A stretch of 33,644 nucleotides of DNA, from positions 1-33,644 of the forward strand of contig JAPLMG010000099.1 in the NCBI GenBank assembly GCA_026387165.1, in the 5' to 3' direction. The notes below the pieces were generated by a model. It was given only the letters and a program-made list of their open reading frames with translations. It made no database searches and was not told where the DNA came from. Origin of the DNA: Candidatus Omnitrophota bacterium. Lineage in GTDB: Bacteria; Omnitrophota; Gorgyraeia; 2-01-FULL-45-10. The translations under genes and the position numbers were made by a program. This document shows, one piece after another, positions 10,249-33,644 of the stretch (its first letter is position 1; every line of letters starts with the position of its first letter).

Positions 10249-12855
10249 TTACAGCGATATAAGGGCCTGTTGGGCTGCCTTATAAGCTGCCGCGGCTTCT
10301 GAAGGATTGACCGGCACTATCTTAGGCAGTATCATAAGAACGCCTCTTGATAACAATGCCTCGACATCATCTTTGGTGAACGGTCTGTTGTCAGGGTTTA
10401 TGGCTATCCTGTTTAAAGACAGGAGGACGTCATCGATCGAAGAGTCGTAGGCTATTCTCAAGGCCACTTCGTACAGCCCTATTATGGGTATGTACCTGTT
10501 GTCCGGATTCTGTATATTGAGGACCTTACCTATCCTGGTGAGGTACTGGCCCACTTCATTCATAGTGCTGTTTCCCGCGATAGTCACCACCTTGTAAGGA
10601 ATGCCTGCTGCCTGCAGCTCCTGCGCGGCCTGAGCGATATTATCCAATAGCTTCCTGCCCGTTGCCCTGATGTCTACCAGCTTGCCTTCAAGATATTTGT
10701 TTATCGGCCGCTCACCAGCCTGCGCCACCTGTCCGGGCGCGACCGCCGTATCATGCGCGATTATGACCGCCCTGTTGTCGAGCGCGCCTCTCAGTGCCAA
10801 TGAAGCGAGATACTTCTGCAACGAATCTCTTTCCGGTATAGTCGAAACCTGATAGATCTGCTCGGCCGTCACCTTTCCGGCGCCTTCCCCGGCGGGATAC
10901 TTCTTCTCGCCGTCCCGGCCGGCCCTGGATAGCCGCGCAAGCTCTCCGGTAAAGCTTTCATAGAACGCCTTTATCAGCGCTTTTACATCCTCATCGGCCT
11001 CATTGCACTCAAATAGTACGGTCGGCGACACTTCGGCCATGCGCCTTATATTCGGCATGGTCATGGCATCATTGGTCTGGTGCACATTTGCGCCCTCGAC
11101 AGTAGCGCCGTCCCCTTTTCTCGGCGGAACGAGCTGCCTCTTCTCGACGGCCTTCCCGCCTCCGGCATCGACCTCGATATCAACCGTGTTCTTAAATCCC
11201 CTGCCGGTCACCTTATTGTCGATGAGCCTTCTCGTATTTATGAAGATGTTTACTGTCTTGTCGCCTAAAAGCGGCCCGGGCGTATTTGATTCCGCCTGAT
11301 TGGCAAGATTCCCCTCAAGCCCCTTATGCGACCAGAGCGGGAAGAGGGCAGTCTGCACGATCCACCCCTGCCTGCCAAGTTCTGATCCGTAGGCTTCTCT
11401 TCTCAGGCCCCCGACAAATTCCTGCAGGCCCTCACTGCCGACGAACAGGTTTAGCCTGTCGCGCCCTTTTAATTTCCCGGCGAGCTGCGCGGCGATATCT
11501 TTGCCCAGCTGTCTTGCCTGCGTTGCCGTATTCATGGCATTTTGCTTTCCGTCAGCGCCTATGGCGGGAGATCCGGGATTGCCCGAGCTAACCAGAAGCT
11601 CTGTTTTGCCCTGACCTATAAGATCCTGCGCATACTTTCTTTCATTGTCTCTCCACCCGGCAACTCTGTCTGACGTATATTCGCGGACCTTCTTCACGTT
11701 AGGGTTAGAATTGGCATCGACCCTGAGAAGAGAGGTAAAGACCGTCACCAGATCCGTCCATAATATATCCAATGCCGCCTGCTGGTTTGGCGTCATGCCG
11801 ACGTCAATTACCTTGCCTGTGCCATCGGTGATCTTTGTGCCTTCCACGGTAAGGATCATCACGGGCATCGCTTCAGCGACGCTCTTCACCCTTTTCCTGT
11901 CCTTGTCATATGTGGGCGATGATCTGTCCAGAAGCGCCATGCCGACACATTTCTTACCGGCCGGACTGCTCACAAGCGTTTCCAGTACTGCCGGCGGTTC
12001 ATAGACCTCATCGGCAAGATCATGAATACCCATGGAAATAACATCTCTTTTGTTCGAGCCTTCCATTATATACTGTTCCCATTCGGTTCCCGCGCGGCGC
12101 AGGGACTCCGTATTTGTCATGAATACGATATGCTCGGCGCCAAGCAAGTACATGGCGCCATGCAGGAATCTCCCTGCGCTGACGGGAAGCGATCCATCCT
12201 CATCGGAGAAATCATTCGCCCGGTCGAATTTGTCATGGAGCCTGGCAAATTCTACGGAATCCATTGAAGGCAGGAAGATGCCAGCTATAGTCTGTACCGT
12301 ATAGTAGATGGAGGTCTTTCTATGCATGTTTCTGCCGCCTATATCGGGGCTGAGCTCTATGACTAAGGGCGCGACGGTGGTCTTTTCGGTCTTGCTTCTC
12401 GCTTGCGCCGCCGCTATTGCTATGTCCTTACTGGGCCCGCCGTTAACTATCGCTATACGCTTATTAAATCCTTCCTGCAGTGAACGGCTTGCCACCTCCA
12501 GGCCTTCCCAGGTCGCCCCGGATCGTGTTATGTCCACAAAGATCGTGGAATCCGGTTTGATCTTGCCTTCGCTGTAGAGGCGCGCGAACTCCCTCGCTGT
12601 CGCCGCGTGATACCAGACCGGCGCGCCGGCCGGCTTATTTTCATTGTACATCTTAATCAACGACCACATGAACTGATCATTGGCGCCTATTCCGTTGGTC
12701 ACTATAGCTTTGAGATTTTGGCCATTCGGGCCGAACGCCTGCTCTATGAAAGAGCGGATCTTTCCGTACCATTCAGGTTTAAAATAGTTTTCGAAAAATT
12801 GCAAAACAGTCTGCTTAGTCCCGGTCCCGCGGTAGTTATATCCTCCCCGCGCCAT
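10249..12855 (-). CDS. C-terminal fragment: glucose-6-phosphate isomerase-like (SIS) domain plus conserved C-terminal domain
   Basis: Motifs VTNGIGAN (cf. GIGGS), DITRSGAT (cf. SKSGTT), DIGGR, EQYIMEGSNK (cf. QLxxESxGK) and NPNVKK (cf. QPGVExxK). Linker DGEKKYPAGE precedes the C-terminal domain. No RBS is evident at 12855. Confidence 0.7.
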   Translation of the reverse strand: MARGGYNYRGTGTKQTVLQFFENYFKPEWYGKIRSFIEQAFGPNGQNLKAIVTNGIGANDQFMWSLIKMYNENKPAGAPVWYHAATAREFARLYSEGKIKPDSTIFVDITRSGATWEGLEVASRSLQEGFNKRIAIVNGGPSKDIAIAAAQARSKTEKTTVAPLVIELSPDIGGRNMHRKTSIYYTVQTIAGIFLPSMDSVEFARLHDKFDRANDFSDEDGSLPVSAGRFLHGAMYLLGAEHIVFMTNTESLRRAGTEWEQYIMEGSNKRDVISMGIHDLADEVYEPPAVLETLVSSPAGKKCVGMALLDRSSPTYDKDRKRVKSVAEAMPVMILTVEGTKITDGTGKVIDVGMTPNQQAALDILWTDLVTVFTSLLRVDANSNPNVKKVREYTSDRVAGWRDNERKYAQDLIGQGKTELLVSSGNPGSPAIGADGKQNAMNTATQARQLGKDIAAQLAGKLKGRDRLNLFVGSEGLQEFVGGLRREAYGSELGRQGWIVQTALFPLWSHKGLEGNLANQAESNTPGPLLGDKTVNIFINTRRLIDNKVTGRGFKNTVDIEVDAGGGKAVEKRQLVPPRKGDGATVEGANVHQTNDAMTMPNIRRMAEVSPTVLFECNEADEDVKALIKAFYESFTGELARLSRAGRDGEKKYPAGEGAGKVTAEQIYQVSTIPERDSLQKYLASLALRGALDNRAVIIAHDTAVAPGQVAQAGERPINKYLEGKLVDIRATGRKLLDNIAQAAQELQAAGIPYKVVTIAGNSTMNEVGQYLTRIGKVLNIQNPDNRYIPIIGLYEVALRIAYDSSIDDVLLSLNRIAINPDNRPFTKDDVEALLSRGVLMILPKIVPVNPSEAAAAYKAAQQALISL

Positions 12856-12893
12856 GTCGGCGCCGACCGCAGACTGATACTGCTGAAGCGCTA

Positions 12894-15800
12894 TCAGCTG
12901 CTTAAGGTCGGCCGTGCTGCCGTCAGGGACAAGGAGCTTTTTCCGTATGTCAGGGACAACTGCTCTATAAGTCCGCTCACATCTACGGAATCGAGAATGA
13001 TCCTCTCCAGCCGCAATGGCGTCAAGTCCGTCAATCTCAGGCCCTTTATTTGGATGCTTATGAATTTCTCCAGCAGGACTCTGCTGAACAACGCATCTGT
13101 CAGTATATATGTTTCGTCCCCGGTCACTTCCGCTAAACCGGCCTGCGCCATGTTCTTTAAAGCCGCTGTTCTTTTGATCCCGACCGATTCGGCAAAATTG
13201 GTCAGAAGCGTATTTGTATCAATTTTTGACCTTACCGCATCCCGGACCCTGGCCTTGTCCATTTTGAGAACGGACGCCAATCTTGAAATATCCTGTTCAA
13301 ATGTCATGCTCGCTATCTCACTTGTCAGCGGCATTACCTTCAATAACTCAGGTAAATATCCGAGCGAGCTCTTAGCCTTACCGTCCCCTCTATTGATGCT
13401 TACAACAAGTCCGTAGATAGAAGCCCTGCGCACATCTACGCCGCTATCACTCAAATATTTGACAGCCGCGTCGTCGACAGTCAGAGGGGCCGTGCTCTTC
13501 TTGGCCATGTTGGCCGGATCGCCCGCGGCCCGCGTAGTGAGATAGATCCTGTCGAATAAGAGCGTGGCGAACTGCGCCGACTGCGCCGTTACCCGGCTCA
13601 GAAGTTCCGGATCATTCCTAATCGCCCACTCATAGCGCTCGACCCCATAGGGCACGGCTATAGAGCGCTCTTCGATATATTCGTCTATGAGCAGCTTAAA
13701 TACGCTGAGGCCCAGCTTCTCTATGCCATCGGGCTTGTTACGCAGCGCAATGCCGACCCTTGACGCGATATCACTCTTGTAATCGCCTTTACGCGTCAGG
13801 TCATCATACTCTTTGTCGTAGTCAAGCAATTTTATATAGTCCACCTGGTCGCTTATGAGCGCCGTATCAAATAGTTCGGCGAATTTGGCGCCGCTTATCT
13901 TCTCGATAAAATTGATCAGCTCGCTGAGGCTCAATCCTACAGTCTCGTTGTCCTCGTTGGGATTAAATACGAAGATGCTCCTCACGCCCCTCGCCCTGGC
14001 GGCTTTGATCGCCTCTACTACGCCATCGCATAACAGGTGGGAACAGAGCGATGTAAAGAAGCTGCCCGGCCCGGTCAATATATAGCCGCCGCTCGAGACG
14101 TTATTGATCATTTCAACGGCCACCTGGTTGGTATCGTCCCGGGATATCGATTTCGCTTCCGCGGAGGGAGCGGAAAATACCCGGTGCTCTTCCCTTACTT
14201 CATTGCCTCCCTCGGCGCTCACGACTATATTCTCTTCTTTAACTTCGGCAAAACCATACTCCACTATCTTTGAGAGATTTACCGTTTCGGTAACGTGCGT
14301 CTGCATGGCGATAAAGCGCGGGACAAAGAGAGCGCCCAGGCCCTCGCCGTTGAAACCGAGCACTTTGTCCTTATAACCACATCCCGGATTGTCATTCTTT
14401 AGCCTTATCTTTTTATCGTCCTTAACAAGATATGTGACATCCCCGGACTCGCTTTCGTCGACCACCCAGTGGTCCCCGTTAAGCGAAAAATACGCCTTGC
14501 CCTCTTTGTCGAGGCCGACCTCTATCGCGTTTAAGATATTTCCGTGGCTGTCCAGTGTCTTGATCAGTATATCCTGTCCTCTCGATAAAGTCTTTATAAG
14601 GGGTGTGCCTGAAATCCGGCTCGCCTCGTCCGTACCGTCAGGATTTCTGATAACCATGCTCGGGCCATGCCTCTGGTCTATGGTCACCACAAGGCTATTG
14701 CCGTTATTTTCGGTATGAAAGCGCGTGTTCCTCTGTATCTTTTCATCGAGGCTGATATTTTCCCACCACGCAAGAACGTTGTCCTGATATCTTGCATATA
14801 CAACCGAGGGCTTAAAACTCGACATGCTGACCTGCCCGTTCGTGATGCCTACGGCCTTCGCAAGTCTGTTAACAGCCATTTGGTATCTGCGCATCTTATC
14901 TTTCGTATCAACGGCATTCCTGCCCTCCGGTAACCGGAGGTCCCTTACGAAGACACCCTCGTCATATAAAACCGCCAGGAGAAGCAGGTTTCGTATGCTC
15001 TGGTTCTGTTTTAGGAGCGTCTTCATGTTAAAGATCGGTTTGCCGTCGAACCCCGGGATACCTTTATCCACTATGTCGGCAAGATTTAACAGGTTCGCGC
15101 TGAACGTCAAAAAATCCGCGCTTAAATTTCTCTCGTGAGACCTTCTGATGCTTTCGAGATTTCTAGGCTTTCTCTGCTCCAGGGCCGCGGCAAGAAGCGC
15201 TTCCGCTCCGTCATATCGCATGTCAAGATTTACTGCCTGGGAAGTCTTCGCCAGCCCTATACCGGCCAGCGTCACCTTTATTTTCTCGAGGCATTCTCCC
15301 GCCTTTTCGAAATCTCCCGCATCCATCGCCGCAAGCGCCTGACCGAATAAATTATCCCTTATCTTCGCCTGCCGTAAAGCTATTGCCATGACATCTCTTA
15401 AGCTCATCCCGAGAAGCTCTTCTTCGCTCAGGCCCATATACCCGATCTTTATCCTTCCGCTGTCATCAAGCATGGTAAATATCTTGTCTGCTTTAAGGAA
15501 GCTGTTAAAGAGAGAATTTACCTGGTCGCCAAGAGGAGGCGTTATCCCATAACCGTTCTCTCTGAGCGCATTTATAATGTGCTGCGTGGCGCCCCCGTCA
15601 TCGACGTTGGTAACAAGCGCGTTGATCGAAAGGCCCGGATTGAGGCCCAAAAGGATCGGAGCCCATAACCTGGATGCCGAGCCCCCGGAAAGCAGAAGGA
15701 CGTCCGAAGAAAAGTCAGGCGGACCCTGCGCCGTTTGGCTTACGCCTGAAAGCTTCTGGCGGAGTTTCTTTGCATCGTCGCCGAACCTGCCTATAACGAT

Positions 15801-16376
15801 ATCGACAACGCTCGCCTTGTTCCTGGCGGCCTCTTCCAGCAGGTCTCTTTGCAATTCTCTTTCATTTCCGCCGTAAACATCCAATAGCCTGCCGTAATTA
15901 TCTGTTTTTTGAAGCGCTTCGCTGAATTCATTTCCGGAGGCTCCGGCCGGATAACTCTTCTCTCCATCCTTCGGAGGTTCGGAGACGGCTGTGCCGCCGC
16001 TGAGGCGCGCGTAAAGGATGTGGAAAGCGCTCTTGAATTCAGCGTTGCCGGTTATGGCTGCCGCTATTTCCTTCGCACGGGCTTGCGGCTGATCGGCACT
16101 GATTAAAGCGGCCTCCATCGCGCCCCTGTACGCATCGAGCATGATCGCTTCGTTCTGAGCGTATCCTCTCTCGCTCGCAATCATGAGGGTCTTATCGAGC
16201 CACCTCTGGACCCCAAAAGACTCCCAGCCTCGCTCAACCCGCCGCTCTCTCGCTATGATCTCTTTTATAAGAGCTTCAAGCTGATCCTTATCTACGCCGT
16301 CAACCTCTGAAAGGATCACCTTTATGCGCTCCTGGCTTATGCCGACGAGCCTCGATAACAGTATCGGGGCGAGCAT
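12894..16376 (-). CDS. Middle fragment: YvcK/GlmR-CofD (UPF0052)-like domain with insertions
   Basis: Motifs LLSGGSA, VTNVDDGGAT, PPLGD and GPGSFFTSL..L. Preceded by linker DGEKSYPAG. Confidence 0.7.
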   Translation of the reverse strand: MLAPILLSRLVGISQERIKVILSEVDGVDKDQLEALIKEIIARERRVERGWESFGVQRWLDKTLMIASERGYAQNEAIMLDAYRGAMEAALISADQPQARAKEIAAAITGNAEFKSAFHILYARLSGGTAVSEPPKDGEKSYPAGASGNEFSEALQKTDNYGRLLDVYGGNERELQRDLLEEAARNKASVVDIVIGRFGDDAKKLRQKLSGVSQTAQGPPDFSSDVLLLSGGSASRLWAPILLGLNPGLSINALVTNVDDGGATQHIINALRENGYGITPPLGDQVNSLFNSFLKADKIFTMLDDSGRIKIGYMGLSEEELLGMSLRDVMAIALRQAKIRDNLFGQALAAMDAGDFEKAGECLEKIKVTLAGIGLAKTSQAVNLDMRYDGAEALLAAALEQRKPRNLESIRRSHERNLSADFLTFSANLLNLADIVDKGIPGFDGKPIFNMKTLLKQNQSIRNLLLLAVLYDEGVFVRDLRLPEGRNAVDTKDKMRRYQMAVNRLAKAVGITNGQVSMSSFKPSVVYARYQDNVLAWWENISLDEKIQRNTRFHTENNGNSLVVTIDQRHGPSMVIRNPDGTDEASRISGTPLIKTLSRGQDILIKTLDSHGNILNAIEVGLDKEGKAYFSLNGDHWVVDESESGDVTYLVKDDKKIRLKNDNPGCGYKDKVLGFNGEGLGALFVPRFIAMQTHVTETVNLSKIVEYGFAEVKEENIVVSAEGGNEVREEHRVFSAPSAEAKSISRDDTNQVAVEMINNVSSGGYILTGPGSFFTSLCSHLLCDGVVEAIKAARARGVRSIFVFNPNEDNETVGLSLSELINFIEKISGAKFAELFDTALISDQVDYIKLLDYDKEYDDLTRKGDYKSDIASRVGIALRNKPDGIEKLGLSVFKLLIDEYIEERSIAVPYGVERYEWAIRNDPELLSRVTAQSAQFATLLFDRIYLTTRAAGDPANMAKKSTAPLTVDDAAVKYLSDSGVDVRRASIYGLVVSINRGDGKAKSSLGYLPELLKVMPLTSEIASMTFEQDISRLASVLKMDKARVRDAVRSKIDTNTLLTNFAESVGIKRTAALKNMAQAGLAEVTGDETYILTDALFSRVLLEKFISIQIKGLRLTDLTPLRLERIILDSVDVSGLIEQLSLTYGKSSLSLTAARPTLSS

Positions 16377-16427
16377 GCTCCCTTTTACATTTTTAGCGTC
16401 CGCCGCGCCCGTATCGGATAGTATCTC

Positions 16428-17963
16428 CTACAGCGGCGTGCGCTGGTTCGTGAGTATCTTGATGTAGGGCGTTTCAACATCCTTAGTGATATTGGGGCAA
16501 ACCACCATATACGATATATTCTGTTTCTCCAGTATCTTGGCTATGCCCTCCGAGTGGAATCCTCCCGTTACGAGCACGGAGACCTGAGCGTTCTCTTTAT
16601 TCATCGCCTGTATCGTATTATCCACGAGAGCCTTATCGCGTTTTATCGCGATGGCGTAGAAATCCTCTAATTTAGGCATGCTCTCCGTAACGGCCTGTGA
16701 AGGCGCGTCAACTTCGTAAGCAAAGCCGTAGCGTGTGGTCATCTTCTTTATAAAGTCCGAGAAAGCCTCATACGCGAACTCTTCTTTGTGCGCTTTGTAA
16801 TAATCGAAATCGCCGTTCAATAGCTTTATGTTGACCAGGCCTATCAGTGTATTTATGTGCCGGGACAGTTTCTCGAGGGTCCTCTGATCATCATTCGCGA
16901 AGAGCTTCTCTTTTACCGCCTCTTCGAACTTCTTTATGTCGTTGAATAACTGCTCATTCTCTATTCGCGAGTACACGGAGTTGTATATTATATAGTTGAA
17001 GAGGTTCGGATATTCCGTAGAAAGCAATACGCCGTACTTCACGGCGAGCGCTCTAAGGTAATCATAGTATTCCGCGGATGATATCTTCCCGACCTTAAAT
17101 TCGAGAGACCTGCTTACAAGCTCCGTAAGCTTCTCTTTATCGAGCTTCTTGGTGATAAGGTCTATTAACGCGGCGCGCTCTTTATCCACTACGCTGAAAT
17201 CTATTTTCTTTTCGTAGATGAGCACGCTTATGAGCTTAAAGAGGTTGCCGTATTGGCGCAGGGCCACTTTATGCTTTTCGCCGAGAGACTCCAGATACTT
17301 AACATAGTCGGTGAACGAAAGTTTCTTGGCCTCATAGTCCTGGTTCTTCGCATCAAGCTCTTTCATCTCTTCACTGTAGACATAGGTTTTGAGCTTATTG
17401 ATGATGGTCTTTATCTGATTGAGGTATCTTTCGGTATCTTCCTTTAAGGGGTAGCTGGAGGTGAATGCGTTTAAATTCTCTATGTAGTAGGAGCGGGTTT
17501 CGGCGCCGAAAAGCTTTATGGGCAGGTCGCTCGTTATTGAAAGGAATTCCGGGCCCGTTATCTCGCCCTTCTTCATGAAGTAATCGGCCACTTCTTTTCT
17601 TATATCGGCATCCGGAAAGGCCTTGAACCATGAGGTATCTATAAAACCATCGGCGCCTTCCACCGATATTAAACTCAAACCATCATTATTAACAAGGCAT
17701 TCCAGTATCTTTATTATGTTGGACTGGGCCTCATAATTGCAATGGGCGTCCTGAATATGGATAACAAGTTTTCCCGGGTCCTTGGACGCATATTTGGCCT
17801 TGATGAGCCCGTAATCGCGCGGGATAACTATCTTTTCGGGATCGGTGGTGATCTGGACTGCCTTTTTGGTATCAGGTGCGGAAGTTTTTGGTATATCAGC
17901 GAATGCGATGTTTGTGAATACGAAGGCGAAGAGAACCAGCGAAGAAACTGATTTCTTAAACAT
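16428..17963 (-). CDS. N-terminal fragment: signal peptide plus conserved IQDAH/EG/GxE/RD/GGFH domain
   Basis: RBS GGAGGA lies ~7 nt before ATG 17963 (MFKKSVSSLVLFAFVFTNIAFA). Colinear homology with the first ~500 residues of the 4969-aa protein. Confidence 0.8.
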   Translation of the reverse strand: MFKKSVSSLVLFAFVFTNIAFADIPKTSAPDTKKAVQITTDPEKIVIPRDYGLIKAKYASKDPGKLVIHIQDAHCNYEAQSNIIKILECLVNNDGLSLISVEGADGFIDTSWFKAFPDADIRKEVADYFMKKGEITGPEFLSITSDLPIKLFGAETRSYYIENLNAFTSSYPLKEDTERYLNQIKTIINKLKTYVYSEEMKELDAKNQDYEAKKLSFTDYVKYLESLGEKHKVALRQYGNLFKLISVLIYEKKIDFSVVDKERAALIDLITKKLDKEKLTELVSRSLEFKVGKISSAEYYDYLRALAVKYGVLLSTEYPNLFNYIIYNSVYSRIENEQLFNDIKKFEEAVKEKLFANDDQRTLEKLSRHINTLIGLVNIKLLNGDFDYYKAHKEEFAYEAFSDFIKKMTTRYGFAYEVDAPSQAVTESMPKLEDFYAIAIKRDKALVDNTIQAMNKENAQVSVLVTGGFHSEGIAKILEKQNISYMVVCPNITKDVETPYIKILTNQRTPL

Positions 17964-18033
17964 AAACACATTCCTCCATTGTTTGTAAATTCGTGACCTA
18001 CCTTTTTATTTCTAACTTTCTGTTAGTACTAAT

Positions 18034-18061
18034 ACTATACTCTATATATACGATGTGTCAA
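18034..18061 (-). promoter_or_regulatory. Putative sigma70 promoter for the 17963-to-148 transcription unit
   Basis: Minus strand reads TTGACA (18061-18056), 16 nt, then TATAGT (18039-18034) in an AT-rich intergenic gap. Palindrome TTAGTACTAA lies at 18023-18032, just downstream. Confidence 0.6.
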
Positions 18062-18105
18062 CCAAAAATAACAAACTATTTTGTTCTTTAACATTTTCCA
18101 CAATC

Positions 18106-21100
18106 TTACGCCGCGCTTAAAATCGCTCTCAGCGCCCGCTGATGCTCGCGCACCTCTTTATCGTAATATATCGGCACGGCCTTCGGTACATATATGAATA
18201 TTCTTCTCATCTCATCTCTCGAAACGCCGGGTATATCAGGCAATTCCCCGACGGTAAACAGCTCAAACAACGCCTCGTAGCTATTAGTGTCAACGAAGAC
18301 GCCGTTAATGTCGCCCAACTCCAGTATTACAAGCGGCGGGATAGCAGATCTTAAGGTTTCGTAATCCTTTATTTCACCTTTCCTGATCCTTAGTCCAACA
18401 TGTCCGGGCGTTCCACTAAATAAGGTAGATAGGCCGTTGACCTCTTCTGCCGTACGCGCAAACGCATGATCGACATATCCTTCCAGGCCAAGGGCCGAGA
18501 TGTACCGTTTCGCGGCATCGTCGTTTCTGACTCTCGGGTCGGTTATTGCCACAACTTCCTTAATAGGATCATCCCCCTTATCGTGTATATCCATCTTCTG
18601 CCATCTGGCGCGTATCTTGTCTCTCAAAGAATAGAGCATGCCCGATTCAACCACGCCTTGTGTCGTTATCGAGACAGCCTTATCCCTCTTTTCAAACAGG
18701 GTATTGAGAGCGGCACTATTGGCGTGAGCGAAGCTCGGGCTTATGGCCTTCGTGCGGCGCTCAAGATCGGCCTTCAGGGCCTCTATGCTGGCCGGCGCCA
18801 CTGCCGGGAGCAGCCGCTCGATCTCAGTGACTTTGGCCGTAAGATCACCGAGCGGTATTGAATCTATATTCGAAGCGTTTATTATCGCTATGTCGGCATG
18901 CGCTTCCCTGAACGCCTTGTCAGACAGTGCCTGGAGGTGCGCTATCGTCTCCCGGATGCCGGCGCCGGACCCTATGTCGAGCACCGCGCCGTATTTTATG
19001 CCGCGTCTCTTCGCCTCGGCCATGAGCTCGGCCGGATTTGACGACTTCATTACGTAGATTTCCGCGCTGCCATTAAATATCCTGTCAATTTCCCGCGCAA
19101 TGGCGGGTCTCTCAAGCGGCGGCACAGAGTCCCCCGGCATACCGACAATGTACGACTTTAGAGATTTCGGCTTCGCGGCTTCACCGGTCTTTATTACCGC
19201 CGAAGACCTCACGAACTCTGTATCCTCGTCTGCGACTATACTGTAATTCCCGGTCTGGGCGGTAACAAATAGATAAGGATTCCGGGCGTTCAATTCTCCG
19301 AGCGCCGTCTTTCCGTCGCCCGAAACTATTCGCGCTCTTCCTGATATCAAATTCAACGTATGATAGCTCTTAAACGTATCGAACTTGGCCGTCCGGCCTT
19401 TCTTAAGCTTCACGCTTTCGGCGTCGATGTTTCTGTCTATTTTTTTGCCATATTGATTCAACACCCACATTCCCAGCATTTCGACAGGCGCAGCCTCAAT
19501 AGCCTCGTCAAGACTAAAATCGACGGTCTGAAGATGTATCCTCCCCGATCTTATGCTCAATACGGAGTTGCATCTTATAGCAATGGTTATGCCGTCTCTG
19601 CTCCTTATCTTGCGTATAACTCTTAAGAGATCGCCACTCTTATGGTTTATGGGCAATTCCCGCAGTTCGTCCGCCAGGGCCTGCAATCGCCCGAAACGAG
19701 TGCCGAGTTGATAGTAATGCCACGGCTTCGGATAGCTCCGAAGCTTCACGGCGTCAAAAAATCTTCTGCCGGCCCTTTCTATCGCGCCTTCGCCGATGAG
19801 CGGCGTTATAGACGGGTCGTATTGTATATTTTTCGGATACTTAAGCTCGTAAGGCCGGGTGAACCGCTCCACGAATCTCGGCATCACCTCTAAATGCTCA
19901 GATCTCTCCACGCCTTCGCGCCTATATTCGGTCAGGCCCAGGACGTCGTTGCTCACGAGCACCTGTCCGTCGGCCTCATTGCCGCTTCCTATACCTATCG
20001 TAGGTATGGTAAGATGTTTTGATACCATCTCAGCCGTACCATCATATACCATCTCAAGAACTATGCTGAATGCGCCTGCTTCTTCCAGCGTGGCGGCGTC
20101 TTCGAGGAGTTTCATCATCTCTATCTTGCTGCCGCCGAATACGCGCGGCCTCCCGAACTGCGGCATGTAGCCGATGTGGCCCATGACGGGGATGCCCGCG
20201 CTAACGAGCGCCCTGACTATCCGGCCCATGTCTCTGCCGCCTTCCATCTTTACCGCATCGGCTCCGGCCTCTATCATGAGTCTCGCGCTGGCTAACGCCT
20301 CCTCGGGTGTATCGTATGAACGATACGGCATGTCGCCTATAACTACCGTCCTCGATCTATCGGCGCCTTCGGAGACCATCCTGATATGTTTTAACATCAT
20401 CTCCATCGTGGCGTAATTTGTCGTCGGATAACCGTACTTGACCATCGCGACCGAGTCTCCGACTAAGAGCATCTCGATGCCCGCGTTGCTGAATGCCCGC
20501 GCCGTTACGGCATCGTAGGCCGTAAGCATCGTTATCTTCTCGCCATTGGCCTTCAATTCCTGTATACGCCGTATCCTGTCGTACGCATCCTCTTCGGCGG
20601 GATAGGCCTTTTCACCGGATGCCGGGACGGACGCGAGTAATATCGGCTCGGCATTCTCTACCATCCTCTTCCCTGAGCGCCAGTTGAGCTGGAGCTCTTC
20701 GTCAACCAATCTCTTGTCTCCCAAAAGCGCCATCATGGCGCCTATATAAGTTCCGTGGCCGAACAATATTACGGTTTTCCCCTTATGCTCCCTGTTAACC
20801 ATGTCTAAAAATTTTCGCGCTCTGATAAGAAGATCCGCAAAGCTTTCTCCGCCCCGCGGCCTGACGTTCGCATCAAAATGTTCACGGTACCTGATCGCAA
20901 GCTTTTTGTCTTCTTCGGAAAGGTCCCGAGGAACTTTATTTTCCCATACCCCGAACGATATCTCGTTCGTCATCCTGTCCGTTATTACGGGAATCTCTCT
21001 GCCCGTCCTCTCTTTGACAAGTTTAGCGAACGCCGCCGCGGTATCTTTTGAGCGGCCGAGCCCGCTTGAGAGAATGACAGGCTCGTCGCCTGATCTTATC

Positions 21101-24100
21101 CTGCTCTCCAGCGCGGCGAATAATTTCCCGGCCGCTTCCACGGACTGCCTCATCCCAACTTCGTCGAGCTGATTCATCTCCCCGTCTACATCTCCCTGGA
21201 AGACATCCGTGATGGTATTGGCTCTTGTGCGGCCGTGACGGACAACCCACAGATCAACTTCGCTCTTTACGACAGGTCCTTCCGGCCCGTATCTGATCCG
21301 GCCGGTATTCGGGTTAACGGCTATTTTACCGTCCAGTCCCGCCAGCGGCGTCCAATCATCCGCAGCCTTAATACCCTTATCGGCGAGGAGCCGGGCGAAA
21401 ATATAGAAAGAGCCGGGGTCCGGCGCGTCACCGTCGTGATAAACATAGTTGAGGCCTCTCAGGCCGGCCTGCGCGGCAGTCTTAAGGACTCTCTCGTTGT
21501 CGTCCACAAAGAGTATCTCGTCCTCACTTATGCCCAATTTGCGGGAAGCCCGCTCTCTGGCTCTGGCAAAAAGCTCAACGTCGTCTTTTCCCAAATGCTC
21601 ATCGCACGTGAAGACGATAAGATCGTTATCGTCAAATATGCAGGGATAAGCTTCATTCAATTTCTTCAGTATAACGGCCGGATCCCCGTTCCACCGGCTG
21701 GAAAGCAATCCGAACTTTATCCCGTTCTGCTTAAGGAGTGAAAACATTGCGGCTACTTTCGCATTCGGGCCTCTTATCTCATACCGCAGCTCGAAAAGCT
21801 GTTCCGGAGTAAAGTCTCTCTTTAGGCCGAACCTTCTCAGCTCTTCGTTTACATAAGTGATATATTCTTCGGCAGAGACCAGGCCGCGCATGACTTTCTT
21901 CTCATATTCTTTATCGCCGTAACAATACAGAAGGCGCTCCAACTCCTCCGCCGCTATCTTTACACCGTAATCTTCCAGGCGCCTGGCCATCTTTATATAT
22001 CTGTCGCCGGGACATTTCAGGAGCACGCCGTCTATATCGAAGAATATCATCTTCGGCAGCTTCTCCTCTGCCGCGGGGTATTGCTTTTCACCGCTACTTT
22101 TGCCGGCGACGCGGGCTTTTAGATAGCTGATAGCTCTTTCCGTTTCGCTCTTCAAAATTGTATGGACGTCCTGTTTCCCGCCTATGCCGTCGAGCAGGGA
22201 TATCGTCAATTCACCGCCCAGATGGCGCCTGAAGCTCTCCAACCCGGGCCATATATTCTTTACAGTGGCCGACCTATCATAAATGGGCAGCCCTATCGCT
22301 TCCAGTAGCGAGAGGGTCCGCTCCAGCTCATTTTTTGAAATATAGCCTCTCGCGTAGGAGATATGGGTATCTATCGCCATGCCGACAGCCACGGCCTCAC
22401 CGTGATTGAGCCGGTGATCTGTCACCATTTCGAGCCTGTGGCCCCACTCATGCCCGTAGTCAAGCGGCCGGGCGAGCTTCGTTTCATACGGGTCGGTGCA
22501 TATCTGTCCCAGATGGGCCATTATGGTGCCCCAGATTATATCCTTCATCCTGCTCCCGGCTGACAGGTCATTATTCAGGACATCCTTGTAATGCCCTTCC
22601 ACTACTTCGAACAGGCCTCTATCCTTTATCAGGGATACTTTAACGACTTCAGCCATCCCGGAACGCATCTGCCTTGTATCAAGCGTCGACAGGATCGTCG
22701 GGTCTATTATCACGGTCTTCGGCGGCTGGAAGACGCCTAAGAAATTCTTCTGTCCGGCGTAATTTACGGCGTTCTTCGTCCCGACGCCCGCGTCGTCCTG
22801 CGCCAATAACGTCGAGGGTATGCGGATATGCTCTACGCCGCGGTGCAGTATACTCGCCGCGAAGCCCGCCATATCGAGGACGGCTCCGCCGCCCACGAGG
22901 ACCATCATCTCTTTCCTGTCGATGCCGAATTTTTCCGCCTCTCTTATGACCCTGTACACATGCCTCATGCCGGCCTTCATGTCTTCTCCGCCCGGCACGA
23001 CCATTATATGCGCGTTTATACCGTATCGTTCTGTATATGCTTTTATCTTCCCGGTCAGCGCCTTGCCCACTCCGCCGTCCACCACGAAGAACGTCTTTTT
23101 GCCGCCTATCTCGCCGGCCAAAAGTCCGTTGGATACGTCGAATACCCCGATGGATAATTTAACTTCGAAACTCTCATCCGGCCGGACACCGACTTTAAAA
23201 GCCCTCTCCGGATTCTTCTCCTTCGCCGGATAGGATTTTTCGCCGTCCTTCAGCAAGCTCAGGACAGGCTCAGGGCCGCTTGTGCCATAAATTAACTTCT
23301 CCCCTTTTCTTACATATATATCGGCGTCTTTGACCGCCGCATTGTCCGGCACCTCAAAGCTTCCGTCGTACGGGTCTTCAAATTTTACATTGAGGCGGCC
23401 GCGTATGATCACGTTTTTGCCTATCTTTATCTCTCTTCCGCCAAGATAGGCCATAGAAGCGCCCTCTATCCGCCAATTCCGGCCGACCTTCCCTTTTATA
23501 TCGTCCTGGTGGAGAGCGAAAGCGGAAGAAAATTCCAACGTGCTCTCTTCCGATACCTGCGCGTCAACGCCGGATTGAGCGAGCCATCTTTTGGCAAGGT
23601 TTGAAATGGCCTTCGCTACGGCAGCCGGCGAATCTTCGCCCGTCATCTCCTTAAAAGAAGCGAAGCATTCGGCGCGGTCGAGCGTGATATAAGATGCCGT
23701 CTTGGCCTGGCCGATGGCATCGAATACCAGGGATTCAAATTTATCTATCAGGCCGTCTGTTACTGCGCCATCTTTAAATATCTTCGCCTTTTTATTCCTG
23801 ACATAGCGGAACGGCGGCGGAGTTGCCGAGGCGAGAAAATCGTATGAATAGACAAAGCGCGAGATAGAACCGTATTCGTAGCCATTCCTGTCTCTTATAA
23901 CCCCGGCTGCCGGCTGATTATATTCCACCACAAAAGGTTCTCCTGTGATCGCGTCTTTTGCCGGCATGCCCAATCCTTCCCCGGGGCTTCTTTTGCGGAC
24001 TAAAACCGTGGTGTGGTCAGAATGTTTTTTTGAATGGTACCCGAGAAGCATTTTGTCTATGACCGGCGTCGGGTTGTCTATCTGGCAGTAAAGGAACGTA

Positions 24101-27100
24101 TCTATACCCCTCATCCCGGCCTCTCTCAAAGCGCTTACGGCGCTTACGGCGCCTCCGCCCGTTCGCGCTTTCACCGTGCGCATCGCGCGGTATAGCCCGC
24201 CGTGGCCATTGGCGGCCCTGAAGAAGACGCCGTCTCCCGCCATGGCCGGATTATCACTGCCCGCTTCACGCGCCGGCAAGCTCTCCTGTTTTATAAAGAT
24301 GACATTCTCTTTGCCCAGGCTGAGATAATTATTCGCGGCGAAATATTCACGCGTAGCGGTATCGTTAAGCTCTGACGTCATTATGAACCACGGGATTATG
24401 CTGCCGTAATGCTTTCCCGCCGCCAGTATCTCATCGGCCCTCGCCTCAAACAATGTCCTGGAGGTTACCGGCATGATGGGGTGCATCCCCTTCGGATAAT
24501 TTATCCCCGCCCTCGCCGCCATTCCGCCGGCGACAGTTATCACTCCGACCCTGCCGCTTCTCAATAATTCCTCGCCCGATTTTTCCATTTCGGAATTCTC
24601 TTCTTTATTATCCGGGAAGATGATATCCTGTGGAGCAATAAGGCCCGCATCTATCTCCTCTTTATCTATCACGGCAAATTCCGCATCGGCGACTTTTATA
24701 TTTTTAAGGACGATCCTGTGGCCGGCCTTCTCTTCGCCTGCCGCGCTTTCAGCAATTAATTGCGGAAGCGCACGGGATAGATCGACGCACCTTTCTATCG
24801 TACCAAAACCTTCCGGATAGAGCAGGCCGTCAAATGATGACGCCGCCCTGTCCATATCCCTTTCGGAACAATTCGGCGGGGATGTGCTTATATGGACCGT
24901 GGAGGGAATAACGCCGTCTTTATTAATAACCTCTTTGATGAAATCCGCTATCTGCCGGCTCTCCGCGGCATCCGTATCTATGTTGAATATTGCCTTGGTC
25001 CGGCGCGGCCTCGTCCCCACGCTGAAATAATCCTGACTGCGGCACATTCTGTTCTCAAGGCCGAGTTTTTCAAGTTCCTCATCCGGCTCTTCCGGACCTG
25101 CCCTGCCGCGACCGAATGAGACCCATATGTGGTGCATCAACCGGCCTTTTTCGGCTATTGTCTTCGCGATCCTCGCGTCCAAGTCGCCTATCTCCTGCGT
25201 ATCCATGTGGTCATCTATAAATATCTGATGATTATCGCTGCTTGAGACATCTGCGCGCTCTACGGCCTCCTCAAGATATTCTCCCGAATCAGAATGACTA
25301 TCGAACACATATACGCTGTAACCGGCATTCGTGCGTATCACTACGTGATATTCCATATCTGTCGGGGCCGCGCCTTCTTTCTGTGAGCGCTTCACGTCTT
25401 CCCATGTTCCGAGGATAAGCCGCCTGCCTTTGACGACCTCGCGGTACCAGTGATTATTTTCGGCATCCCACCTGTAATGCGCCTTATCATAATCGTCCAG
25501 CTGTAGTCCGGATGCGTGAGGATCCGGATATTTTAACAGGGCTCGGCCTTCGTCACCTGCAGGATAGGCTTTTCCGACGCCCGCAAGTTCGGAAACTTCC
25601 CCGGCGGGAATAGCTTTCTCTGCCGGATGGAATTTGAAACTGAACGAATAGAACGAATCTATAAATCTTTCTGCCGTCTCCCGCAATTCGGAGGGAGCGT
25701 CATCTTTATGTACGTCCAGGAAATGCTTAAAGAAAGTTTTCGCTCTGGACCTAAAGCCGGTCTCATCGAAGAAGCGGTCGACCTCGGCTTTCAGTTCCGG
25801 GTGAGCGCATAGATAGCGGTAGAGCGGCATATCGACATCGATAAAATTGCTCCTCTCCTCCATCGCCTCTTCTTTGTCGGTGCCCATCGTGTTTCCGTGG
25901 TTCAATTCGTGGGCAACTTTTTCGGCGGTGATCCATGGTATAGCCCTGGGATATCTATCTCTGTACATTATGAGAGTTTCGATGAATTTTTGGTCGAGCG
26001 TAAGGTGCACGCTGCCGTTCACTATCGTCTTTCCGACCAGGTGGGGTTTGTAAGGTATGACGTGGACCGGGATGGGCGGGCCGCGCTGCGGTATTATTTT
26101 GGAGACGTCTAAAAGCGCCACGCGCAATAGGTCGGCCAGGTCCTGAACTTTTTTAGGAAGACCATTCTTTACCTCAACCCCGCTATTTTTATATATCGTG
26201 ATGCCATCGTATGAAAGCACTCTTTCCCTCATACAGCTATTTTTGCTCGCGATAAATCCTCCGGCTTGGTCATAGTAATAGCCTTCTCTGTCGAGCGATT
26301 CCTGCCACGGCATGCCGGGGATCCTCGATATCCATACGGGCAGTTCCGGTTCTCCCTGTGCGGGATAACCCTTCTCTCCGGACTTTCCCCGCTTTGCCCT
26401 CTTCCATGAATCGGTCACAGCTACGATATCCGGATCGATATTTTCAGTGAGCAGGTAGTCAAAATATGACGGCAGGCTTATCCTTTGCAGCACATCTCTA
26501 ACAAAGCCTTCCGGCGCTTTTATGCTATCCCTCGAGGCTCTTCTATACGCGCTCGACGCGGGTTTCGCGAGCATGAGCGCCTTCAAGTCATAACAATCGC
26601 TCCACTTATCCTGCAGCGCGTAATTTCCTTCGATTATGACTACGGTATCGCGCGTTATCTTAACGGCCTGCTTAAGGCTTAACTTGCCGCCGTTAAGTTC
26701 CGCGTATAGATCTGCGAGATCGAGCGAGATCTCGGGCTCGCCGCTCTTTCTGAAACGCCGCAGCTTCTCGAGCACGTCCTGCTCAAATTTCTCTTCCCTT
26801 AATGAGATACGCTTCCAATTGACGCTAGTAGCGGCTCTACCCATCTCGTCGGCGTATTTAGGATATCTGTCATTGTAGCGGTCACGCAGGAACCAGTCGA
26901 CCCTGACGATCTCGGCTTTCTGACCGGACGATCCCAGTACGGATCTCAGCTCTTTTGCCATCGTCGTCTTCAATGAGCCGGAATTCCCGTCTATCGCTAT
27001 GACGAACGGGCCATCTCTCTTCTGGGCGCGCCATTTCGCTATCTCATCTAATATATATTCTTTTGTATCCCTGGCATCCCTGACAACATTACCGCCGCTG

Positions 27101-30100
27101 AATTTCCCGAGGCATTCTTTATACAATTTACTTAACATGCCCTGTATCTTGATATGGGCTGCCGCGGCTTTAACCGTTCTCTTTAAGGCCGCAAAGCTCC
27201 CCTCTCTTCTCTTCGCGCCGCCCGCTGCCGAGCCCTTCATATTTCCGGCCGGATATGCCTTCTCGCCGGAGAGGGGTCTTCGCACAAGTATGCAGGACCC
27301 TATGGGGCGGCGCTCCCCGAGATTTTTTGTATCAGATTTTTTTCTCGCGCTCGCCCATGTCGTATAGCTTATTCCTTTATCCTTCCCATCTCTTTGAAAT
27401 GTCTGCACGTCGGCGCTCGAGCCTAAAAGAACCGCGTCGGTCACACCCAGATCTTTCAGAACGTCTATGACATCGGCTATGCGGGCCTCGTTATCTCTTG
27501 CCGGAATCCCGGATAGGTCTATCCGGACGAGCTTGCCGTCCTTATTGTATCCCATCGCTGAAAATGCCATCTGCTGATCGGCTGGCCATAGCAGGTCGTT
27601 GCCCTGCCTCGGCGGCCTTACGCCAAATTTAAGCTCCTGCATCATGCTTTGACCGTTAATGAGAAGCGGCGAGCCGGCTATACCATTATGTATGGGAAGA
27701 TCACTTACCGGTTTACCGTCCCTCAGGCCTATTTCATATACGCCTCTTTTGTCTCTGTCAAAACTTAATACCCAAAATCTGCCGCTCAACGGCACGTATT
27801 CCTGCTGGAATAATCCGCGCGCGCCGGCTGATTTTGCGATGACCTCTCCGCCCTTTATTATAAGGCTTGTTTGATCCCAGAACCCGCCCTGCGTTCCGCT
27901 GAATGCAAGAACGATATTCTCTTTATCCTGCGCGCCATCTACATACTTCTCTATGACCTTGCCGCCGGGCAGCGCTCCTGGAACATTCATCGGACGAGAT
28001 ATCATGTCGCGGGAGCGCAGGCCTTCATCTATTTCCTGGCTTATATCTACTTTGGCGGGATCGATAATGAACGCCTCTCCCTGAACGTCCACATCGCCCC
28101 TCTTGAGGGATAGCCCCATCTTTTCCACGCCGCCGCATATGGCCGCTGTTTTTTTAGACAATCGCTCGCGCACCGCTTCAAAATATTGCCTGTCGGCGTA
28201 CTTACACATCTCATTGAACTGGTCTATCTGGACCTGTACCGGTAAAACCCCCTGAGCTATATCGCCCGCTATATTCGCGGTGAGCACGGCCATAAAGGAC
28301 TCGAAGTCTATCCCGGCTTTGTCGAGATCGCGCAGCAGATCATCGATGTATCCGGCGGCCTTCTGCACATCCCGGAAGGGGCGGATCTTTACATCCGCCA
28401 GATATATGTCGGCCAATATGAAATGATTTTTGATGAGTATCCTTAAGAATTCCTTTTCATAAGATGGGATCTCAAAGCCTTTCGAGCGCAATTCTTTTAT
28501 CACGGCATCTTCAAATATTTCGGCGCCCCTCTCTGGATGATCAAAGATATCTAGCTTCCTGCCTCCGACAACTGCGCCTATGTCGGCCTTTCCTATGTCA
28601 TGCACCATAGGAATGAGGTCCATCACACGGCTGTTCCTGACGTCCTTTTTTACGGCCCGCGCAAGCGAATCGTGAACCTTTTTCATCACGCCGAAGTATG
28701 CTTCTTTAGAACCGTCTTTTATCGCCGCGCCGGACATTGCCTCTTTTGTCATGCGCATGAGGTAGCCATAATCCTCTTTTATAAGCGCGCGCACGCCTCT
28801 TATCACCAGAGCCGTATGATGGTAATGCGTCCTCGCGTATCCTTTTCCCGTTGGCATGCGCCGCATCTTATGGAAGACAGGCAGTTCACTGATGAGGCCC
28901 CACAGCTCGGCAGGGCTGATATATTTCACGGAACGCATATCTCCTTTTATAGGAGGCAACGGTGAACCGGGAGTCTCTGAATATGGGCCCTCAAGCGCCT
29001 TTCCGGCCGGATAGGCCTTCTCGCCGGAAACACCGGATAACTTTGTATCCCCTTTCCTTCCACGCTGGGACCGGAGAAACTCGTCAAGAAGCTGTGTGCC
29101 TATCGCGTAGTAGGCCAGAGTATGCTTGCCGCTCGGGTCCTGGCTCAGGCGGTTTGGCGCGTCCGTGATAAAATGTGTGGCCTCGGCAAAGAGGGCTTTC
29201 TCCAGCCACAGGGGTTCATCTTTTAAAAGTTCCATAAGGCGCGGCTGATTACGCAGCATTTCCGGCAGGCGGCGCCTTACCTCAAGGAAATTGGCAACCG
29301 CGCTCTTTGAGGTGTGATACTTTATATCGAAAGCGAATGTTCCGCCCTCCTTGCGCACCGATATGTCAAAAAGGTTATTGCGCACGATCTCCAGGAGAAA
29401 TGAGTGCAGGATCTTTCCGAGCTCATAGGTAAGGTCTATTCTCGACGGGGAGTTTCCCGGAAGGTCAACGCCGCGCACGTCAAAAAGCCGGAAATTGCCG
29501 TCGCCCATCCTCATTACATTTCTTAATAGGAGGTCGCCATGCGCGTATTTAAGGATGGAGCGCGGCTTAAGCCGCTCGATCAGTCCGTGATCGGCCTTTA
29601 CCTCCGATATCAGGCGCGGAAGGTTCGTGTGATCGACACCGTTGATCCTGATGACCGGAGCCTTCGACAGCTCTTCAAACATATAAGAGATATCGTCGTA
29701 TCGCGCATTCTCTATGGCAAACGGACGGCCCGATATAAGCTTGTCATAGACATCTCCCTCTTTTTTCGTCAATAGCCCGAACCTGTAGTCTACTCTCGCG
29801 AGGTGGACCTTTTGGACATAATCTACGGGCACTTCAAGGTTACCCCGCGAATAGAGGTGGCGGCAGAACTGATCTATCATGCTTTCGAGGTCGTCCAGGA
29901 AAGGCTGCGCTCCGCCGGAAGCGTGCTCGAGAAAATAGAAAGGCAGCGGCTTGCCTCCTTCGAGGTACTGCATACTGTAGAAGGCGAGTTCGTTCGTCTC
30001 ATGATATTCGTACACCTCCGGTATCATCGCCGCGCCTTCGGGGCCGAGCGACTGCTTCAGCTCCTTAAGCCTTTTATACTGCGCCCTGAGCCACGGAATG

Positions 30101-33083: not shown

Positions 33084-33644
33084 TTACGCCGCCGCTAACG
33101 CGGTTCTCCTGGCGTAGTAGTTCCTGTTTAATTCTCCGTAGTCCTTAGGCTCCGCCTTAGGTATCAGCATGATAAACCTTAACGCTTTGTCATAAGAATC
33201 TAATTTTACCATCGGTATATTCGGCGGATCTTTTCCGGCGGCTATATCCAATGCCACGGATAACATCTCGAGTATCTTTACATCGAGATGTATTGACGGG
33301 TCTTTATTATCCTTAATGAAGGCTTCCAGTTCAGCGGGGTCTATTGCCGCGATAAAAGCCTTCGCTTCCGTAGGCGTGCTCCTTAACGAGTCGAAGCTTG
33401 ACGATGCAACGGTTCCTTTGGACGCCAGGATGACTACATTCGAGAGCTTCGTATTGGCCTTATCGGCTTCCTTCAATACGGAAGCCGCTATCTCTTTTGA
33501 GTTGGATCTTACAAATACCACGTTATCAAGGCCCATCGAGCGGAGGATATCCGGGATAGATTCGATCTGCTGTATGACCGGGTTCATCGCCTGATGCTGG
33601 AGGCTGCCTGTTTCGTTGTAGCCCGGTATCCAGTCTGTCTCGAG
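33084..33644 (-). CDS. 3' end of another member of the same protein family (partial; runs off the window)
   Basis: The frame is open to the window edge (LETDWIPGYNETGSLQHQAMNP..). It ends with the family signature FIMLIPKAEPKDYGELNRNYYARRTALAAA and a TAA stop. Confidence 0.85.
   Translation of the reverse strand, partial: LETDWIPGYNETGSLQHQAMNPVIQQIESIPDILRSMGLDNVVFVRSNSKEIAASVLKEADKANTKLSNVVILASKGTVASSSFDSLRSTPTEAKAFIAAIDPAELEAFIKDNKDPSIHLDVKILEMLSVALDIAAGKDPPNIPMVKLDSYDKALRFIMLIPKAEPKDYGELNRNYYARRTALAAA

Follow-up and report, generated by a model that had tools for sequence, protein, structure and literature searches.

Giant proteins of Omnitrophota carry many enzyme domains on one chain, and it is an open question whether that chain persists as a single molecule or is cut into pieces. 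In their main text, West-Roberts et al. 2023 (10.1101/2023.11.21.568195) proposed cleavage from the presence of peptidase domains, raised it as an open question and stated that the cleavage points were unknown, which blocked the analysis. We addressed this question in a contig of 33,644 nucleotides (nt) from an uncultured freshwater Candidatus Omnitrophota bacterium (JAPLMG010000099.1, assembly GCA_026387165.1), analysed as a whole and called the window below. All of its large open reading frames (ORFs) lie on the minus strand, and several carry the heptapeptide GEKxYPA at junctions between enzymes. The best explanation of our results is that GEKxYPA is a lineage-specific seam motif in disordered linkers that join complete, exchangeable enzyme cassettes of giant, putatively signal-peptide-bearing proteins. 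We tentatively suggest, with somewhat less than an even chance of being right, that a site-specific protease recognises the motif as a processing site. The motif offers a first concrete candidate for the points at which the Omnitrophota giants might be cut.

GEKxYPA recurs in the giant ORFs of one genome

A six-frame translation of the whole 1.93-Mb genome contained 16 strict copies of GEKxYPA, against 0.06 expected from residue frequencies, and a reversed-pattern control on the same DNA gave no match. An earlier, sequence-only reading of the window had proposed a genome-wide scan for the broader pattern [GA]EKx[YI]PA. All 16 copies sit in open frames of at least 989 residues: 8 in the window, 4 on contig C62, 3 on C199 and 1 on C264. 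The window holds two degenerate copies as well, and its ten copies, all on the minus strand and all in giant multi-enzyme ORFs, are the ten that the sequence-only reading had listed, each recovered where it had been placed (Table 1). Six strict copies belong to P0001, a protein of 4969 residues, and one each to P0002 and P0003; the degenerate pair, AEKAIPA and VGKAYPA, stands in P0001, one after the other. Independent contigs, drawn from two samples, read straight through the motif sites, so the junctions are not assembly chimeras, and chance or assembly artefact as the source of the motif can be excluded for practical purposes.

More than ten distinct enzyme families tile P0001. It begins, in order, with a signal-like N-terminus, a Tiki/ChaN/EreA-like domain (the N-domain), RmlD, a kinase-like region, an unassigned region with a weak NAGPA match, and PRK. 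It continues with a module bearing an HExxH motif, an unknown stretch with UDPGP, DHQS, HAD with His-phosphatase, PanB, a further unknown stretch and a conserved C-terminal domain (the C-domain). Pfam and NCBIfam matches cover RmlD, NAGPA (weakly), PRK/uridine kinase, UDPGP, DHQS, HAD, His-phosphatase and PanB. One ORF therefore encodes several complete, independently foldable products, as a polyprotein gene does.

The motif marks the ends of whole enzymes

The motif lay outside every domain envelope called with Pfam or NCBIfam and close to its edge. The sequence-only reading had held that every copy falls between domains and never inside one, and this was true wherever domains could be called. 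At DHQS, HAD and PanB the seams lie 3-17 residues from the envelope edges, and the DHQS envelope of P0001 (residues 3281-3639) has a seam on both sides (3258 and 3642). Two free-standing DHQS homologues have their ends at about the same places: P0162 ends five residues past the helix that precedes the seam, and P0164 begins within the stretch just after the seam. We regard it as firmly shown that the motif marks the natural ends of whole enzymes.

In an AlphaFold model of the HExxH module and its flanks, the core (model residues 62-253) had a predicted local distance difference test (pLDDT) score of 80-95, and both seam-bearing flanks scored below 50. The seams are thus predicted to be short, accessible, disordered linkers. 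Only part of the domain boundaries carry the motif, which means that the seams delimit units of one to three domains. The earlier proposal that the motif releases individual enzymes was therefore too strong, about half of the boundaries having no copy.

Selection acts on the peptide, and the copies share descent

We collected every 21-mer of the genome with at most two mismatches from the DNA consensus, a set not biased by the peptide. It comprised 13 sites, in which all 13 mismatches fell at third codon positions, and each site still encoded GEKxYPA. Synonymous codon choice in the eight window copies was near genome usage, with 7.1% of 5000 simulations as concentrated, whereas the eight copies on C62, C199 and C264 were nearly identical DNA, and none of 5000 simulations was as uniform. 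The flanking DNA is unrelated between copies, which rules out a shared DNA repeat.

The sequence-only reading had inferred from synonymous codon variation that the peptide, and not a DNA repeat, is under selection. The codon variation is real for the window copies but does not extend to the eight on the other contigs. Selection on the peptide is likewise supported by the confinement of mismatches to third positions and by the orthologues described below, but since half of the copies in the genome are near-identical DNA, the copies also share descent. The simplest reading is that copies arise through DNA-level copying, after which selection holds the peptide while synonymous sites drift. That the motif is kept by purifying selection on the peptide is firmly shown.

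Orthologous sites were available for four strict copies, and all four keep the six fixed residues, with the variable residue changed in three and local identity ranging from 43 to 86%. P0010, a protein of 3278 residues from a close relative, has SGEKGYPA at the site matching P0001 residue 2213, and in P0161, a fragment with 86% identity, the DHQS/HAD seam reads GEKHYPA. P0031 (2793 residues) has DGEKKYPA at the P0002-138 site, where local identity is 43%, and DGEKNYPA at the P0003-649 site (80%). The degenerate pair is degenerate in P0010 as well, which reads AEEKIDV and then VEKSYPA, the latter at the VGKAYPA site.

Outside this circle the motif does not recur in numbers. In the more distant relatives P0009, P0015, P0023, P0064 and L051, the linkers at these junctions are unrelated and vary in length. 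The 40 nearest genomes hold at most one copy each, and the 5 same-genus genomes hold none; among 400 other genomes of the phylum none exceeds two copies and 38 hold one or two, a reversed-pattern control giving scattered single matches of the same order. P0031 is the only carrier among the 150 best relatives of the N-domain. GEKxYPA is thus lineage-specific, which we consider firmly shown.

Other giants carry other words

Two proteins found through the DHQS module of P0001 repeat words of their own. P0008 (6876 residues) contains RAEVR 24 times, and P0163 (2280 residues, from a Candidatus Omnitrophota metagenome-assembled genome (MAG)) contains xLDNGG 7 times. No copy of either word falls within a Pfam envelope, and several lie 13-20 residues from domain edges. 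At equivalent positions on either side of the DHQS cassette, P0001 has GEKxYPA and P0008 has RAEVR. In the DNA of P0008 (locus L050), 12 of the 24 RAEVR copies are one identical 15-mer, a quasi-palindrome, and none of 5000 simulations was as uniform; all 21 near-copies (at most two mismatches) still encode RAEVR, CGC-to-AGG changes included. An origin of RAEVR or LDNGG from the same DNA read in another frame was considered and rejected by eye.

Among 192 long proteins, an isolated 5-mer repeated at least four times with unrelated flanks occurred only in P0001 (with its duplicate records), P0008 and P0163. The use of seam words therefore recurs but is sporadic.

Two observations stand beside these words. 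L050 contains three double RAEVR seams, each enclosing a conserved, strongly structured spacer of about 50 nt with two strong hairpins (minimum free energy -54 to -69 kcal/mol in 108-nt windows), and these look like a small structured element carried in frame. In the genome of a relative (G026), a giant ORF of 3504 residues (L020) has the linker word GERQSxSG seven times, often doubled with a PGTPTTGN spacer. We did not accept it as a clean parallel, as its DNA is largely conserved and looks like a recent low-complexity duplication.

Candidate hydrolases within the same protein

The N-domain of P0001 is homologous to the neighbouring P0006 and belongs to a family with 8364 representatives at E <= 0.001, most of them proteins of 1000-5500 residues in which the domain comes first. 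Its AlphaFold 2 model has a pLDDT of 89.4 and contains a helical insert of about 300 residues. The best five of 48,161 chains compared with it were ChaN 2g5g (Z 9.0), HopBA1 5t09 (9.0), 2qgm (8.7), EreC 6xcq (8.5) and 2rad (8.4), 2qgm and 2rad being EreA-like proteins; these values are only modestly over the usual background of 7-8. RRSP, the MARTX endopeptidase (Z 5.9), and PMT were weak fold matches. Foldseek gave no match at E <= 0.001 for this domain, the search being swamped by the helical insert. From the model, the N-domain appears to share the alpha/beta fold of the Tiki/TraB/ChaN/erythromycin-esterase superfamily. Members of the Tiki/ChaN/EreA superfamily include proteases (Tiki, RRSP), esterases and a haem-binding protein. 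In an alignment of 38 sequences, H76, E104, E141, E157 and H472 were among 25 invariant columns. No Pfam family matched convincingly: the only hit, PF23202 (E 1.2e-05), scored 25.9 bits where the cut-off is 25, and no individual stretch passed.

The second candidate is the HExxH module (P0001 residues 2221-2464), which stands between a strict seam on its upstream side and the degenerate pair on its downstream side. Across 15 sequences H165, H169 and D191 are invariant and E161, E166 and E182 nearly invariant, so that by its residues the module has an HExxH motif with a putative third ligand downstream. Of 401 genomes of the phylum, 12 contain the module, in every case within giant frames, which reach 68,606 residues. 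Matches of the core to small zincins were weak, at Z 4.6-6.4 (BlaR1 6.4, 3e11 5.6, selecase 5.6, jannalysin 5.3, Wss1 5.1), and the Atlas match to DUF6639/peptidase MA scored 0.79, under the 0.9 lead level. A sequence search of solved structures with P0006 and the HExxH module returned nothing below E 0.5. Complex predictions of the N-domain and the HExxH core with a 40-residue seam peptide scored 0.02 (mark 0.32) and count neither way.

A retropepsin cutting between Y and P was also considered. A PF13650 gene is present on contig C237, but the family exceeds its cut-off in 9 of 20 other genomes searched, motif-free members of the same genus included, and so does not discriminate; we rejected it.

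Cassette content differs between relatives

In P0010 a single hybrid seam is all that separates the HExxH module from HAD; in P0001 two additional cassettes, with two additional seams, stand between these modules. Where modules of relatives are homologous, the homology usually begins or ends no more than about 15 residues from a seam, and breakpoints coincided with seams in 2 of 4 cases between P0001 and P0010 and in 2 of 2 between C62 and C199. Since about half of the P0001 linkers carry seams, these 4 of 6 are hardly above what breakpoints confined to linkers would give. The contigs of three samples showed no supported joint at a seam, a weak test because contigs alone were used; the three listed joints were short-sided and lay elsewhere.

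Is the seam a cleavage site?

The six invariant residues carry information comparable to that of site-specific protease sites and above what a plain flexible linker needs. In our view a processing site best explains this information content, the position at natural termini, and the use of one word per genome despite differences between lineages. Under such a mechanism, a site-specific endopeptidase would recognise GEKxYPA and, after export, divide the giant precursor in the manner of a polyprotein, each piece comprising one to three domains, and seam word and enzyme specificity would drift together in each lineage. The candidates within the protein would be the N-terminal Tiki/ChaN/EreA-like domain and the HExxH module, itself flanked by seams. 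A wider proposal, that the Omnitrophota multi-enzyme giants are true bacterial polyproteins with lineage-specific seam codes and a co-evolving endopeptidase, perhaps Tiki/EreA-like, that frees the enzymes outside the cell or in a host or prey, appears doubtful to us.

Several results weigh against proteolytic processing. About half of the P0001 domain boundaries are without the motif, among them N-domain/RmlD, RmlD/kinase-like and HAD/His-phosphatase, and P0004 and P0005, multi-domain proteins encoded nearby, carry it at none of their boundaries. One copy on C62 lies only 17 residues into its open frame, where cutting would free only a short peptide. The codon uniformity of 8 of the 16 GEKxYPA copies, and more strongly of RAEVR, indicates DNA-level copy-and-paste as well. 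As for the enzyme, the best fold match of the HExxH core reached only Z 6.6 in VIA-align, with zincins interleaved with TetR helices; Foldseek found no match for the core at E <= 0.001, and neither flanking seam docks on it in the monomer model. Neither candidate tracks the motif: both occur in relatives without it, only 1 of the 150 best N-domain relatives carries it, and the HExxH module is present in the motif-free genomes G020 and G001 and absent from the RAEVR protein P0008.

Some of these results would be accommodated if the motif were bound by a partner (a scaffold, a chaperone, an export factor or the protein's own N- or C-domain) or modified on its Lys or Tyr, the chain remaining intact. 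Such docking or modification would explain why only some boundaries carry the motif and why one copy stands near the N-terminus of an ORF. An accessible disordered linker, peptide-level selection and lineage-specific words fit it equally, and conserved linkers can go uncleaved, as that of C2H2 zinc fingers (TGEKP) does. We nevertheless consider it unlikely, though a serious contender: no partner or modifying enzyme was identified, docking does not require a position always at the natural ends of whole enzymes, and the three lineage words are without common chemistry.

A genetic origin, in which the motif is mainly the footprint or handle of a DNA process that swaps cassettes in frame, each insertion copying the seam and the peptide being merely tolerated, draws on the near-identical DNA of the copies on C62, C199 and C264, on the quasi-palindromic 15-mer and the three structured double seams of RAEVR, and on the cassette differences between close relatives with breakpoints at seams. 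A DNA-recognition site, however, would not spare first and second codon positions, where none of the 13 mismatches fell, and the window copies have drifted to near-random synonymous codons with the peptide kept, as it is in an orthologue at 43% local identity. The unrelated flanks leave 15-21 nt, short for homologous recombination; the breakpoint counts hardly exceed expectation, and the sample contigs gave no supported joint at a seam. A mainly genetic seam is in our judgement improbable. Far less probable still is punctuation of translation, with codons or nascent peptide slowing the ribosome where a cassette ends, which would give each enzyme time to fold or be exported before the next emerges. 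The position exactly at domain ends would suit it, as would the codon preference beyond usage in half of the copies and the GAGGTG within RAEVR DNA, which to us resembles a Shine-Dalgarno sequence. Motif windows also fold more stably than background (-23.1 versus -19.0 kcal/mol), but the copies are without a common RNA structure and the gap may reflect GC-rich Gly, Pro and Ala codons. Furthermore, the window copies are near-random in synonymous codons, conserved ribosome tunnels make lineage-specific arrest peptides unexpected, and the motif does not recur in 440 other genomes (none with more than two copies), which also have giant ORFs. A conserved RNA hairpin at the motif was also discarded, because the copies differ in structure, as was an internal start of translation behind the seam, where start codons are not consistently present.

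Relation to known systems

Multi-enzyme metabolic giants have been described from complete Omnitrophota genomes (bioRxiv 10.64898/2026.06.07.730766), and the proteins of the window fit that class in having many distinct Pfam families with none dominant by copy number. As in the main text of that preprint, unrelated metabolic families tile one chain behind an N-terminal signal or anchor, and ROK, PGM, HAD, HD, radical SAM and methyltransferase content recurs; the nearest named relatives, P0163 and L051, likewise come from Candidatus Omnitrophota MAGs. The window proteins are smaller, at 0.9-5 thousand residues (P0001, 4969) against the cut-off of at least 10,000 residues used there; same-phylum genomes contain open frames of up to 68,606 residues. 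In their main texts, as distinct from the supplements, which lay outside our search, neither this preprint nor 10.1101/2023.11.21.568195 refers to a motif that recurs at junctions. Neither main text contains "linker" or "polyprotein", and that of 10.64898/2026.06.07.730766 does not contain "cleavage" either. Our full-text literature search returned nothing combining Omnitrophota with polyprotein.

The sequence-only reading had likened the proteins to viral polyproteins and to MARTX toxins. In MARTX toxins of Vibrio, conserved N- and C-terminal regions frame strain-variable, unrelated enzyme modules, processing at unstructured linkers releases the modules, and the repertoire changes through recombination. 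The likeness holds for the overall plan, in that N- and C-terminal ends are conserved here and middles vary between relatives, C62 and C199 being variants with different middles. It fails in the parts: Pfam matches (E <= 0.01) include no glycine-rich RTX-type repeats, the ends being a Tiki/EreA-like domain and the C-domain, and the inositol-phosphate-activated cysteine protease domain (Peptidase C80) is not among the Pfam matches of P0001-P0006. MARTX cleavage needs little more than a Leu, in contrast to a seven-residue word here, and the cargo consists of housekeeping-type metabolic enzymes rather than known toxins.

The sites of viral polyproteins, such as the heptapeptide of potyvirus NIa/TEV protease, are similar in that a short, high-information word is repeated at the product junctions of one ORF, and in that the word differs by lineage and would co-vary with the protease. 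Here the ORF lies on a bacterial chromosome, the protease is only a candidate, and not every junction carries the word; the recurrent, peptide-conserved word at product junctions that characterises a polyprotein is present at about half of the domain boundaries only. Surface adhesins of Mycoplasma hyopneumoniae are cut at an endoproteolytic motif, S/T-X-F|X-D/E, with sites mapped by proteomics. That motif is likewise a short word in disordered stretches of large exported bacterial proteins, where it directs cleavage, but it is looser and belongs to adhesins, not enzyme arrays. The TGEKP(Y/F) linker of C2H2 zinc fingers is a conserved inter-domain linker with many repeats per protein and a superficially similar GEK.Y, without implying homology; it is eukaryotic, connects small DNA-binding modules that are all identical and, when these bind DNA, caps the helix in front of it. 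Its example shows that conservation of a linker does not by itself imply cleavage.

A word at cassette boundaries gives exact places to look, and the parallel words extend this beyond one genome. If the seams are cut, the giants would represent a polyprotein system of metabolic enzymes encoded on a bacterial chromosome. Uncut, the seams would still define exchangeable units for building and reshuffling giants, and in either case they offer a rational split of giants into units for structure prediction.

The locus and its neighbours

Coordinates are given in Table 1. By Pfam and NCBIfam, P0002 contains CofD/YvcK, P0004 PRK and phosphofructokinase, and P0005 a ROK kinase. P0001, P0004, P0005 and P0006 begin with a basic and then a hydrophobic stretch that reads, from the residues, like a signal peptide or anchor. 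The C-domain closes P0001, P0003, P0005 (window positions 148-720) and the giants of relatives, and gave no lead in Pfam, the ESM Atlas or solved structures. Giant ORFs of relatives, up to 9556 residues among those fetched, share the first ~615 and last ~290 residues of P0001 and not its middle.

Table 1. Seams and other features of the window
Feature	Positions	Strand	Remark
P0001, multi-enzyme ORF	18106..33015	-	4969 residues
N-terminal domain of P0001	31486..32814	-	homologous to P0006; Tiki/ChaN/EreA-like fold; candidate hydrolase
GEKAYPA seam, preceded by S	29005..29025	-	P0001 residues 1331-1337
GEKAYPA seam	27247..27267	-	P0001 residues 1917-1923; between NAGPA (weak match, ends 1883) and PRK (start ~1987)
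GEKGYPA seam	26359..26379	-	P0001 residues 2213-2219; upstream flank of HExxH module
HExxH module, confidently folded core	25645..26220	-	candidate zincin peptidase
AEKAIPA degenerate seam	25603..25623	-	P0001 residues 2465-2471; downstream flank of HExxH module
VGKAYPA degenerate seam	25558..25578	-	P0001 residues 2480-2486
GEKSYPA seam	23224..23244	-	P0001 residues 3258-3264; 17 residues before DHQS envelope
GEKQYPA seam	22072..22092	-	P0001 residues 3642-3648; between DHQS (ends 3639) and HAD (starts 3655)
GEKAYPA seam	20596..20616	-	P0001 residues 4134-4140; between His-phosphatase (ends ~4111) and PanB (starts 4147)
Conserved C-terminal domain of P0001	18109..18990	-	also in giant ORFs of relatives
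P0006, free-standing N-domain copy	16428..17969	-	
P0002 (CofD/YvcK-like)	12894..16376	-	middle piece of split gene
GEKSYPA seam	15945..15965	-	P0002 residues 138-144
P0003	10249..12855	-	last piece of split gene, closing in conserved C-domain (10252-10773)
GEKKYPA seam	10891..10911	-	P0003 residues 649-655; just before conserved C-domain

P0006, P0002 and P0003 appear as pieces of a split gene. P0006 and P0002 are in the same frame, with only an in-frame TAG (16428-16430) between them. At position 16430 the contigs of three runs covering it all have C, not A, on the plus strand, which would make the codon GAG, and the orthologue P0031 aligns straight across the site; this split is a variant or assembly error. 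Between P0002 and P0003 there may be a frameshift: the open frame of P0003 extends 120 codons upstream of its ATG (12894-13218) and overlaps the end of P0002 in another frame, and the content of P0031 differs over 12894-13218.

The right end of the window (33504-33644) overlaps the end of C62 by 141 identical bases. The motif-bearing ORF of 1753 residues on C62 therefore continues into the first ORF of the window (33084-33644), directly upstream of P0001, and the giant gene cluster continues on C62, with open frames of 2429, 5535 and 1753 residues. C199 is an alternative branch at this place: it matches C62 over 141 nt at its start (100%) and over 475 nt at its end (95%) but differs in its middle and domain content, which suggests strain or paralogue variation in cassette content.

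In a Pfam scan, the small ORFs beside the locus yielded an HD domain only, and six other giant ORFs of the genome yielded no protease family (E <= 1e-4). Elsewhere the genome has further open frames of 8055+ and 6014 residues. It also contains a separate PanB-like gene (287-residue frame, C170) and a separate DHQS-like gene (312-residue frame, C168), 50% and 33% identical to the P0001 modules, which are therefore divergent extra copies. On contig C81 (1405-11241), an open frame of 3279 residues contains an intein splicing domain (PF14890, E 1.4e-21).

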